A DNA stretch of 64,000 nt from Thermoflexia bacterium (GTDB lineage Bacteria > Chloroflexota > Anaerolineae > B4-G1): NCBI GenBank assembly GCA_011192155.1, contig DUEK01000012.1:541-64540 (forward strand), given 5' to 3'. Each line of letters begins with the position of its first letter. Positions within the stretch are counted from its first letter, which is position 1. The position numbers and the translations under genes are program-made. Shown here piece after piece: positions 20,426-23,604 of the stretch. The notes beneath the pieces were generated by a model. The model did not search any database, was not told the DNA's origin, and saw only the letters and a program-made list of their open reading frames with translations.

Positions 20426-20502
20426 TGGGGTGGATGACGGGACTTGAACCCGCAACCTCTGGTTCCACAGGCCAGCGCTCTAACCATTGAGCTACATCCA
20501 CC
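20426..20502 (-). tRNA. tRNA-His(GUG)
   Basis: G-1, acceptor GTGGATG/CATCCAC, discriminator C, encoded CCA, anticodon GTG, GGTTCAAGTCC T-arm. Confidence 0.95.
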
Positions 20503-20650: not shown

Positions 20651-20856
20651 GTAACTGCTCAGGCATAACCGGGAACACAGAGATGCGCAAAGGATACACA
20701 GGGTTTCACGGAGAAGAGAGGAGAAAGTTTGCTTGTTGTACCAATTTTCAGCACAGAATACAGTGTTCGCCTGCCTCTGGGCGGACGCCCGCCTCTGGGC
20801 GGACGCCCGCCTCTGGGCAGACGTAAGCACATATCTTCCTATCTCTCTGTGATTCT
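20651..20856. mobile_element. MITE family A, copy 3, truncated
   Basis: Left end GTAACTGCTCAGGCATAACC and body match copy 2; right end absent. Confidence 0.8.
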
Positions 20857-21189: not shown

Positions 21190-21594
21190 CTACGGTCGCA
21201 TCACCGCCGCCATAATCTCTGCTCGATCCGGCATCCCGACCTGCGTCAGCATCACCTTGCCCACGCCGTCCAGCAGTACGAAAGTGGGCACGCCGCGCAC
21301 GCCGTAGCGCATTGCCAACTCACCGCCCACGCTGTTCATCACGTTCAACCGCAACACCTGTGCCTGGTTCTCCAGTTCTCGTTCTAGCCCGTCCACGACG
21401 GGCTTGGCCAACAGGCACGAGCTTCAGGTGTTCGAGTAGAACTCGACCAATGTGGGCGCGCCGCCGCTTACTTGTGCATCAAAGTCCGCTGTTGAAGCCA
21501 GATCGTCGCCCGGCGTGCGCAGGAACAGATAGCCGCCCACCATCACGGCGATTATTAGAATCACTGACCAATTCTCTTGCCAGAAACGTTTCAT
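21190..21594 (-). CDS. Membrane-anchored thioredoxin-like selenoprotein (UxxC)
   Basis: Two track ORFs join in frame across TGA 21424-21426 to give LVEFYSNT-U-SSC; downstream YGVRGVPTF; hairpin 3' of the TGA. Confidence 0.85.
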
Positions 21595-21604
21595 TGAATT
21601 CTCC

Positions 21605-22219
21605 TCACCGAGAGACCTTGTCTTGTACTGTCGCCTCAATCACCCGTACAATACCCATCGCGTGCCGTTCCACCCGCCGCACCTCGAACCCAACCTGCGC
21701 CACCGTCTGAGCCGTCTCACGGTTCAGGTGACACTCCTTGCTCCAGGCTTTCCAGGCTGGATGCAGTGTGTCTGTCAGCCAGGCCCCCAGGCCGTTGTTG
21801 CCTCGCGTGTGTTCCAGCAGCACCAATTTTCCTTCAGGGCGCAAGACACGGCGCGCTTCCGCCAGCCCTTGCGCCGGGTCGGTGACTGAGCAGAACACAA
21901 ATGAAGCCGCCACCACATCGAAACTGCCGTCGGGGAAAGGGAGTCGCTGAACGTCGCTCTGAGCCAGCGCCGTACCGTTATGCGAGTGACTCTGTGGACG
22001 GCGGGCTGCCCACGTCAACATCTCTCTGCTGGCGTCGCTGCCTGTCACGCGCACCTCTGGCCTGTAGAGCGGCAGGTTGATCCCTGTGCCGACCCCTATC
22101 TCTAGCACGTCGCCTCTGAGCAGCGGGAACACCTGCTGGCGCAACCGCCGGAACAATAGCCACTCTAGCGGCAACATCCCCAGGTCATAGATAGAGGAAA
22201 GTCCATCGAATACGCTCAT
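21605..22219 (-). CDS. Class I SAM-dependent methyltransferase
   Basis: VLEIGVGTG, LPFPDGSFDVV, RVLRPEG. Confidence 0.88.
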   Translation of the reverse strand: MSVFDGLSSIYDLGMLPLEWLLFRRLRQQVFPLLRGDVLEIGVGTGINLPLYRPEVRVTGSDASREMLTWAARRPQSHSHNGTALAQSDVQRLPFPDGSFDVVAASFVFCSVTDPAQGLAEARRVLRPEGKLVLLEHTRGNNGLGAWLTDTLHPAWKAWSKECHLNRETAQTVAQVGFEVRRVERHAMGIVRVIEATVQDKVSR

Positions 22220-22225
22220 TTAACA

Positions 22226-23074
22226 CTAGCCGACCAATTCTCTCAACACCACCAGGTTTTCCCGATCCTCGTGCAGATCGTTGCTCTTGGGCGTCTCCAA
22301 CAACCCCGGCAATCCTTCCAAGCGGGGATCGTTCAATAGGTTGCGGAACCCCTCCAACCCGATGTACCCCTGGCCGATGTGCTCGTGCCGATCCTTGCGG
22401 CTGCCCAGGTCGCCTTTGCTATCGTTCAGGTGGAGCGCTTTGAGCCGCGCCAGACTGATGATGCGGTCGAACTTTTCCATCGTGGCCTCGTATCCCTCCG
22501 CCGCGCGTAGCTCGTAACCGGCGGCAAAGACGTGGCACGTATCCAGGCAGACCCCCAGTCGCTCTCCCTCCGGCGCATGCTCGATCAGCCAGGCCAGGTG
22601 CTCGAATTTGTAGCCCAGGTTGGTACCCTGTCCGGCGGTGGTTTCCAGGAGAATCCGAGCGCGAAAGCCCGGTGTGGCGGCTTGAACCTCTCCCAGTGCC
22701 TGCGCCACTCGCTTCAGTCCAGCTTCCTCCCCCGATCCCACGTGCGAGCCGGGGTGCAGCACCAGATATGGCACGTCCAGCGCCTCGCACCGCTCCAACT
22801 CGACGATGAGCGTATCGCGCGATTTCTGCCAAAGATCTTCTTTGGGCGAGGCCAAGTTGAGCAGGTAGGAGGCGTGGGCCACTACCGGCCGGATGTCAGT
22901 CTCTTGGGCCTTTGATTTGAAGTGGGCAATGTCCTCCTCGGTCAGCGGCTTTACAGCCCAAGATCGATTGGGTTTGACGAATATCTGCACCGCGTCACAG
23001 CCCACCGACCGGGCGCGGTCGAATGCCTTGTGCAGTCCGCCACTGATGGATTCGTGAGCGCCGAGTCGCATCAT
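22226..23074 (-). CDS. nfo: Endonuclease IV
   Basis: LGAHESI, HASYLLNL, HPGS, LETTAGQG, DTCH, HLNDSK, DRHEHIG, LETP. Confidence 0.95.
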   Translation of the reverse strand: MMRLGAHESISGGLHKAFDRARSVGCDAVQIFVKPNRSWAVKPLTEEDIAHFKSKAQETDIRPVVAHASYLLNLASPKEDLWQKSRDTLIVELERCEALDVPYLVLHPGSHVGSGEEAGLKRVAQALGEVQAATPGFRARILLETTAGQGTNLGYKFEHLAWLIEHAPEGERLGVCLDTCHVFAAGYELRAAEGYEATMEKFDRIISLARLKALHLNDSKGDLGSRKDRHEHIGQGYIGLEGFRNLLNDPRLEGLPGLLETPKSNDLHEDRENLVVLRELVG

Positions 23075-23604
23075 TCCCCCAAGGGGATCCATCCCTCCGG
23101 GTAGCGCCGCGCCAGATCCACGTATATCTTTTTGAACTCGGTCCACTGGGCCTTGTATTCCTCGCCCACGGCTTTCGCCAGCACTTTGGCCGGCACCCCC
23201 ACCGCGATGTGACCCGGCGGAACCTCTTGCCCTTGCCGGACGACGGCTCCTTCACCCACCACGGCCCACTCGCCTAGGATCGCCCAGTCGGAGACCACCG
23301 CGCCCATACCGACGATGGCGTAATCGTGGATCATCGTCACGTTGTGGATCACCGCACCGTGGCCGAATGTCACCCAGTCGCCGATAGTCGTCCGCTCGCC
23401 GGGCCGGGCGTGGATGACGCAGTTATCCTCCACACTGCAATAATCACCCAGGACGATGGCGCCATAATCCCCCCGGATGCGCGCGCCAGGGCCGATCCAA
23501 CACTCCGCGCCGATGGTCACGTCGCCAAAAACGTCGGCCGAGGGGTGAACGTACGCGCCCGCGCCGATGTGAGGGCTTTTGCCCTCGAATGATGCGATGG
23601 TCAT
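23071..23604 (-). CDS. Gamma carbonic anhydrase family protein
   Basis: Hexapeptide repeats, IRGD, EDNCVIH, GHGAVIH, GVPAK. Confidence 0.88.
   Translation of the reverse strand: MTIASFEGKSPHIGAGAYVHPSADVFGDVTIGAECWIGPGARIRGDYGAIVLGDYCSVEDNCVIHARPGERTTIGDWVTFGHGAVIHNVTMIHDYAIVGMGAVVSDWAILGEWAVVGEGAVVRQGQEVPPGHIAVGVPAKVLAKAVGEEYKAQWTEFKKIYVDLARRYPEGWIPLGE

Follow-up and report, generated by a model that had tools for sequence, protein, structure and literature searches.

On its minus strand, the window (the whole 64,000-nucleotide stretch of Thermoflexia bacterium DNA analysed here) carries at 21594..21190 one gene that we read as encoding a selenoprotein of 134 residues, with an in-frame UGA decoded as selenocysteine (Sec) by means of a SECIS hairpin; on comparative sequence evidence, the probability of this reading is about 0.88. 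That UGA encodes Sec in the lineage as a whole is likewise very probable. The gene is conserved across a bacterial class and is systematically mis-annotated. It is an unannotated, membrane-anchored thioredoxin selenoprotein within known kinds and not a new kind, since the combination of a PF00085/PF13098 domain with a UxxC motif places the protein among catalogued selenoproteins.

The coding sequence comprises 134 codons and a TAG stop (ATG, 21594-21592; TAG, 21192-21190) and contains a single in-frame TGA, at codon 57 (21426-21424). A GGAG ribosome-binding site, read from the sequence (21601..21604, minus strand), lies 6 bases before the ATG and immediately follows the TGA stop (21607-21605) that ends a co-oriented upstream gene encoding a SAM-dependent methyltransferase (21605..22219, minus strand; Pfam Methyltransf_11, 81 bits). 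The gap between the two genes is 10 bases, and they are probably co-transcribed. Read through, the frame gives a product of 134 amino acids in which residues 52-60 are FYSNT-U-SSC and residues 101-105 are GVPTF. Its features, all encoded on the minus strand, are an N-terminal membrane helix at residues 2-25, with a core from W9 to L25 (21520..21591; AlphaFold helix, hydropathy, and K/R bias); a thioredoxin domain at residues 34-130 (21205..21495; PF00085, E 8e-12, the structural model, and PDB matches); the UxxC redox motif at residues 57-60 (21415-21426), whose first position is the putative Sec codon (21424..21426), in a column shared with Cys or TGA of homologs; and the conserved cis-proline position, P103 of GVPTF (21286..21288).

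Open reading frame calling with table 11 cuts this gene in two (21424..21639 and 21190..21411), and the public protein record reflects the cut. In a search of a 5.8-billion protein set, for which the figures rest on the 120 matches listed, 20 of the 120 are C-terminal pieces of 73-80 amino acids with 74-100% identity, one of these stumps being an NCBI entry named "thioredoxin family protein"; the full-length proteins among the matches listed are all at most 60% identical to the read-through product. The initial annotation had recognized an in-frame TGA where a thioredoxin motif has its first Cys, followed the fold on to GVPTF, and held that gene callers split the gene. Each point is borne out: the TGA aligns with the CxxC Cys column of full-length homologs, PF00085 is matched with P103 invariant in 51 aligned sequences, and the two table 11 frames have their counterpart in the C-terminal stumps of the public protein sets. 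At the TGA, the contigs of four public DNA runs agree with the window in every letter, although this DNA may itself derive from some of those runs. At window position 21280, one low-depth contig (run X4, depth 3.2) has A instead of G, probably a strain variant or an error.

The read-through protein was searched against all 145 genomes of the order, with stops counted and a match set at E ≤ 1e-10. There were matches in 102 genomes, and the best match contains exactly one TGA in 50 of them, 28 from the window's own family (f1, the window's genome included) and 22 from f2, which with f3 makes up the other two families of the order. No stop interrupts 49 full-length best matches, which come from every matching f3 genome (47) and from a single genome each of f1 (G036) and f2 (G073); the remaining three genomes have fragments or a distant thioredoxin only. 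In a class-wide sample of 301 genomes (match at E ≤ 1e-15), 80 matched, with a TGA in 72 and none in 8. An alignment of homologs for Cys or TGA at this position had been proposed at the outset as a check, and among 70 excised loci TGA (46 loci) and a Cys codon, TGC or TGT (24 loci), indeed share one column, the first of x-x-C. The sister family f3, which is without SelA, has Cys at this column in 47 of 47 matching genomes. The dipeptide between U and C varies (SS, SA, AP, TP, and GP). Those Cys-form relatives whose records are named belong to Anaerolineae or Anaerolineales metagenome-assembled genomes, and a contig scan with a Cys-containing pattern, which by design returns Cys forms only, found 32 loci.

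Locus L066 (G073:C167) is a Cys form (TGC) inside the otherwise Sec-type family f2, in a genome that has SelA; it is the only one of the 24 Cys forms with 5 of the 6 core pairs of the hairpin described below, which suggests a recent Sec-to-Cys replacement. A second, paralogous clade of TGA-containing membrane thioredoxins (loci L067-L071, from G013, G032:C13, G008, G028:C353, and G047:C254) has the motif ..SNT-U-xPC-LLAKPIVDG.. and the same hairpin, but with A-U at pair 28-36. This clade co-occurs with the main form in several genomes and was not found in the window's genome.

The surrounding gene order is also conserved, running from a hexapeptide-repeat protein through endonuclease IV and, in some loci, a methyltransferase to the thioredoxin (window 21605-23604; loci L018-L047). 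Of 30 related loci, Cys forms among them, 27 have the endonuclease IV gene upstream of the thioredoxin, and in 11 of the 30 the methyltransferase stands between the two. The shared endonuclease IV neighbor marks the Sec and Cys forms as positional orthologs, rather than pointing to a function. On the other side, a non-coding spacer of about 690 bases separates the thioredoxin stop from a tRNA-His (20426-20501); it contains an 18-base tandem repeat (20768-20823; 3.1 copies, 94% matches), and no Rfam family was matched within it.

Selection was compared on the two sides of the TGA in 26 f1 TGA-form loci (325 pairs, medians). In the frame of the TGA, dN/dS is 0.22 over the 50 codons upstream and 0.24 over the 65 codons downstream; in the two shifted frames of the upstream part it is 1.6 and 1.5. 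Both halves of the gene are under purifying selection in one frame, which excludes a pseudogene and equally a gene that starts only after the TGA.

A hairpin follows the TGA within the coding sequence (AGCCCGU-CGUGG-ACGGGCU, 21404-21386), with 19 bases separating the TGA from its first base. Written with its 8-bp stem it is AGCCCGUC-GUG-GACGGGCU (21386..21404, minus strand), with a conserved 6-bp core at 21388-21402 and a GUG apical loop at 21394-21396. Folded alone it has an energy of -13.2 kcal/mol (z = -4.0; 1 of 200 shuffles folds as well), and the 63 nt from the TGA onward have -26.1 kcal/mol (z = -3.2). [quoted passage not shown]

In a gap-free alignment of 45 TGA-form segments (8 pairs, 360 pair cells), 94.4% of the cells are paired, and shifting the partners by 1-3 columns lowers this share to 24-46%. 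At pair 27-37, CG occurs in 23 sequences, UA in 19, UG in 2, and GC in 1; at pair 28-36, 40 sequences have GC and 4 have AU. The covariation at pair 27-37 joins a synonymous change of a Pro codon (CCC/CCU/CCG) to a Gly/Arg replacement (GGG/AGG/CGG). Because a synonymous CCC to CCU change is coupled to GGG to AGG (Gly to Arg), the coupling acts at the level of RNA and is hard to explain at the level of protein. Part of the hairpin's conservation could nonetheless be at the protein level, since the element sits in the conserved peptide KPVVDG. The loop bases G31 and U32 are invariant among TGA forms, RNAalifold independently predicts the 6-bp core, and no conserved lower stem or bulge was detected in the hairpin alignment. 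Of the 46 TGA forms, 43 have an intact core and all have at least 5 of its pairs; among Cys forms, the corresponding counts are 0 of 24 and 1 of 24. A search of the region against Rfam returned the tRNA-His and only two sub-threshold chance matches, one of them CRISPR-DR28 (22 bits), on the hairpin. The initial annotation had pointed to a hairpin starting 20 nt downstream of the TGA as fitting the position of a SECIS element; the hairpin proves to be conserved, covarying, and of published bacterial SECIS dimensions.

The genome that contains the window is an assembly of 178 contigs, with 83% completeness and 5% contamination. It encodes a tRNA-Sec (66.9 bits; tRNA-SeC according to ARAGORN, with anticodon tca, UCA), SelB (340 bits, over the cut-off), and SelD (371 bits), the last with an in-frame TGA of its own at the known UxxK site (..SAAGUAAKRG..), so that there are at least two selenoprotein genes in this genome. 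The selD gene lies on another contig of the same assembly (C155:4170-5102; locus L001:1441-2600). SelA was not found in the 83%-complete genome with PF03841, TIGR00474, or a tblastn search with a same-genus protein. It is present in both same-genus genomes (about 558 bits), and across the order it exceeds the cut-off in 43 of 47 f1, 25 of 26 f2, and 0 of 71 f3 genomes; grouped by form of the thioredoxin gene, it occurs in 46 of 50 TGA-form genomes versus 2 of 49 full-length Cys-form genomes. Synteny with the same-genus genome G002 stops just before the selA gene of that genome (C1:42373-44612 of the window's assembly versus L092, G002:C53), and past this point other genes follow, inside the 54.8-kb contig C1. 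Candidate causes of the broken synteny are rearrangement, loss, or a binning gap. Because the two genomes of the same genus do not share a selA context, little can be concluded from the loss of synteny. An assembly gap is the likely explanation of the absent selA, and this remains the main caveat. The Sec machinery proposed earlier as a check has been recovered in the form of selB, selD, and tRNA-Sec, and selA is the component not found in this 83%-complete assembly. A crude scan of the window for other in-frame TGAs with a redox-like context gave 47 rows, none of them convincing besides the thioredoxin gene.

The missing selA gives some room to other accounts of the TGA. Its loss could have broken Sec decoding in this genome, so that UGA terminates translation and a true selenoprotein gene has lately become a disabled relic; the failure of both HMMs and tblastn to detect selA agrees with such a history, as does the end of G002 synteny just before selA, inside a 54.8-kb contig. 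However, the assembly is only 83% complete, the context of selA differs even between two genomes of the same genus, and selA is present in each of these two and in 43 of 47 members of the family. The tRNA-Sec, SelB, and Sec-type SelD of the window's genome are intact, and the gene retains a perfect 8-bp hairpin and is free of any other lesion. We regard a relic as improbable. The absence of selA would also fit a UGA read as Cys, Trp, or Gly, by near-cognate decoding or a reassigned code. Against this, TGA ends 15 of the 46 long open frames in the window and also, 180 bases upstream, the methyltransferase gene, where it is therefore an ordinary stop; TGA is not reassigned. The TGA form moreover tracks SelA across families and the SECIS-type hairpin is limited to TGA forms, which makes insertion of another residue very unlikely.

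The split of the frame by table 11, and the presence of only a C-terminal piece in public protein sets, is what would be expected if an ordinary gene for a Cys-thioredoxin had acquired a nonsense mutation, or had been wrongly assembled or sequenced. This explanation is scarcely credible: 50 genomes of the order and 72 of the class sample have their TGA in this very column, both halves of the gene are under purifying selection, the hairpin is conserved and covaries, and contigs of four DNA runs (some possibly of the source DNA) have the same base. The initial annotation had associated a nonsense pseudogene with a genome that lacks Sec machinery and homologs that lack the TGA; here tRNA-Sec, SelB, and SelD are present and the TGA is conserved. 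A selenoprotein gene, with UGA read as Sec, is accordingly the reading that we prefer.

The encoded protein belongs to the thioredoxin family as defined by PF00085 (45.5 bits versus a cut-off of 23.5; residues 49-145 of P0001), and PF13098 is also over its cut-off (30.4 versus 27 bits). An AlphaFold model built with 51 sequences, with U entered as C, has a pLDDT of 90.6; it consists of a long N-terminal helix followed by helix-strand-helix-strand-helix-strand-strand-helix, and the active-site helix (58-73) starts right after residue 57. C60, like P103, is invariant in the 51 sequences. The best 50 structure matches in the PDB are thioredoxins (several of them fusion constructs), with TM scores on the target mostly of 0.72-0.84, and the nearest structures are classical thioredoxins (TM 0.75-0.84, rmsd about 2 Å, 23-30% identity); a PDB sequence search likewise returned thioredoxins (E 1e-11). 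The predicted fold is that of a classical thioredoxin behind an N-terminal membrane helix. By its sequence scores the protein is a thioredoxin-fold relative and not a canonical TrxA, because it misses the TrxA equivalog cut-offs (TIGR01068, 50.5 bits versus 96.8; NF006898, 40.2 versus 138). Redoxin (PF08534) and AhpC-TSA (PF00578) gave no match at E ≤ 0.01, nor did the NCBIfam models SaoT (NF040730), HUIPC-motif (NF047660), and VPGUxxT (NF041383); DsbE (TIGR00385) scored 18.4 bits versus a cut-off of 123, and TsoB (NF045694) scored 18.4 bits versus 805.

The N-terminal helix has a mean Kyte-Doolittle hydropathy of 2.36 in its best 17-residue window, and a short, acidic linker joins it to the thioredoxin domain. 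The 12 residues that precede the helix contain on average 2.26 K/R in TGA forms, and the 15 that follow it 1.20; in Cys forms the averages are 3.12 and 1.12. The bias is toward the N-flank in 29 of 46 TGA forms, equal in 11, and reversed in 6; among the 24 Cys forms, the counts are 22, 2, and 0. Since the K/R bias toward the N-flank and the acidic C-flank of the helix favor an N-in, C-out arrangement, the thioredoxin domain rather probably faces outward. The early description of the protein as an extracytoplasmic enzyme with a membrane helix holds for the helix, and for the location the evidence is this charge bias. In four of the five loci of the paralogous clade (L068-L071), the bias is reversed, with 0 K/R before the helix and 2-3 after, which hints at an opposite topology for L068-L071; a second Sec paralog may be oriented toward the other face of the membrane.

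A thioredoxin that faces outward usually has CcdA/DsbD, VKOR, or DsbB as its partner. CcdA/DsbD (PF02683, PF13386) was not found in the window's 83%-complete genome, nor were VKOR (PF07884) and DsbB (PF02600). DsbD_TM/CcdA (PF02683) is present in 19 of 47 f1, 24 of 26 f2, and 49 of 71 f3 genomes, an order-wide distribution that does not track the thioredoxin gene; many f1 genomes keep the membrane selenothioredoxin and have no DsbD_TM/CcdA. As the usual partners are not evident, topology and function are uncertain. A true selenoprotein whose domain is cytoplasmic, tethered to the membrane and reduced by thioredoxin reductase, would account for the missing CcdA/DsbD, VKOR, and DsbB and for a DsbD_TM that does not follow the gene within f1 (19/47); it also sits well with a fold and nearest structures of the cytosolic thioredoxin type and with the opposite charge bias of the paralogous clade. 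The K/R bias toward the N-flank and the acidic C-flank speak against this arrangement, which we consider doubtful though by no means negligible, and the outward orientation is retained as the preferred one.

What the analysis shows is the frame, the fold, the column shared by Sec and Cys, a hairpin that is conserved and covaries, purifying selection on either side of the TGA, and three of the four genes for the Sec machinery; Sec insertion itself, the topology, the substrate, and the electron partner are matters of inference, for which we propose the following scheme. UGA at codon 57 would be decoded during translation as selenocysteine, so that the motif U-S-S-C replaces C-x-x-C. The hairpin 19 nt after the UGA, within the coding sequence, would act as a bacterial SECIS element; SelB carrying Sec-tRNA(Sec) would bind its apical G-U loop and bring Sec to the ribosome. 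The product is most likely a membrane-tethered thiol-disulfide oxidoreductase whose catalytic domain probably faces outward, and the selenol would be the attacking nucleophile. A bolder and unlikely extension is that Sec is the usual condition of a membrane-anchored thioredoxin found across the class Anaerolineae, which has its selenol on the outer face and works without CcdA/DsbD, DsbB, or VKOR. If true, the protein would belong to an undescribed redox pathway of the envelope, dependent on selenium, in these sediment bacteria.

Selenoprotein biology is unchanged in kind by this gene, and its significance lies in annotation and comparison. The public gene calls for a widespread Anaerolineae protein are wrong, the closest entries being stumps of 73-80 amino acids that lack the active site, and no NCBIfam selenoprotein model covers the family. 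Correction adds a conserved selenoprotein to a major lineage of sediments and wastewater. The gene also provides a natural example of a SECIS element constraining the encoded peptide, with the choice of a Pro codon tied to a Gly/Arg change, and the orthologous series of Sec and Cys forms could be used to study why selenium is kept or lost. Among the papers listed in searches of the literature on Anaerolineae and Chloroflexota selenoproteins, none describes this protein by title or abstract. The bacterial selenoprotein database BSepDB, described as holding 57,630 selenoproteins in 111 families from 16,621 species (PMC13326102), may have this clade among its entries already.

The textbook example of a bacterial SECIS is the fdhF element of E. 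coli. Compared with the consensus that underlies the bSECISearch model, as presented in PMC13188914, the hairpin described here is alike in being a stem-loop within the coding sequence just after the UGA, in a G-U that opens a small apical loop, and in a spacing and energy that are within limits; it differs in that its triloop is at the lower size limit and in that no conserved lower stem or bulge was detected.

The Cys-form orthologs of f3 and other Anaerolineae, annotated as "thioredoxin family protein" or "TlpA family protein disulfide reductase," share with the Sec form its length, membrane helix, and LRTPGD linker, 45-60% identity, and, in loci L041 and L046, the endonuclease IV neighbor. 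They differ in having Cys for Sec, no hairpin (core intact in 0 of 24), and SKPKVDQ downstream of the motif where Sec forms have AKPVVDG/R; those of f3 are from genomes without SelA. Proteins of the TlpA/ResA/CcmG type are membrane-anchored extracytoplasmic thioredoxin-like reductases with an extra insert. They are similar to the present protein in having one N-terminal anchor followed by a thioredoxin-fold domain of the CxxC type, but the family models for this type are unmatched, the fold model here contains core thioredoxin elements only, and in f1 a CcdA/DsbD partner is not co-distributed with the gene.

Among selenoproteins already catalogued, the nearest in kind is a thioredoxin that we take to be the Treponema denticola protein. 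Two further UxxC groups, a thiol:disulfide interchange protein (PF13098) and one that is thiol-disulfide isomerase-like (cd02966), are listed as "predicted with high confidence" (2026 review PMC13188914, Table 1). The present protein resembles these in its over-cut-off match to PF13098, its UxxC motif, and a probable location in the envelope; it differs from what the table gives for them in that its best match is PF00085, with no Redoxin or AhpC-TSA match and with DsbE below cut-off. The same table lists thioredoxin (Trx; PF00085, UxxC) as an experimentally verified selenoprotein family, citing Kim et al. 2015, and with UxxC thioredoxin selenoproteins a listed family the novelty first assigned to this gene was overrated. 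Compared by description, the listed thioredoxin and the protein encoded in the window have in common PF00085, a UxxC motif whose Sec stands at the N-terminal end of the active-site helix, and the fold of a classical thioredoxin; the membrane helix, the variable dipeptide between U and C, and a clade that extends across the Anaerolineae set the present protein apart.
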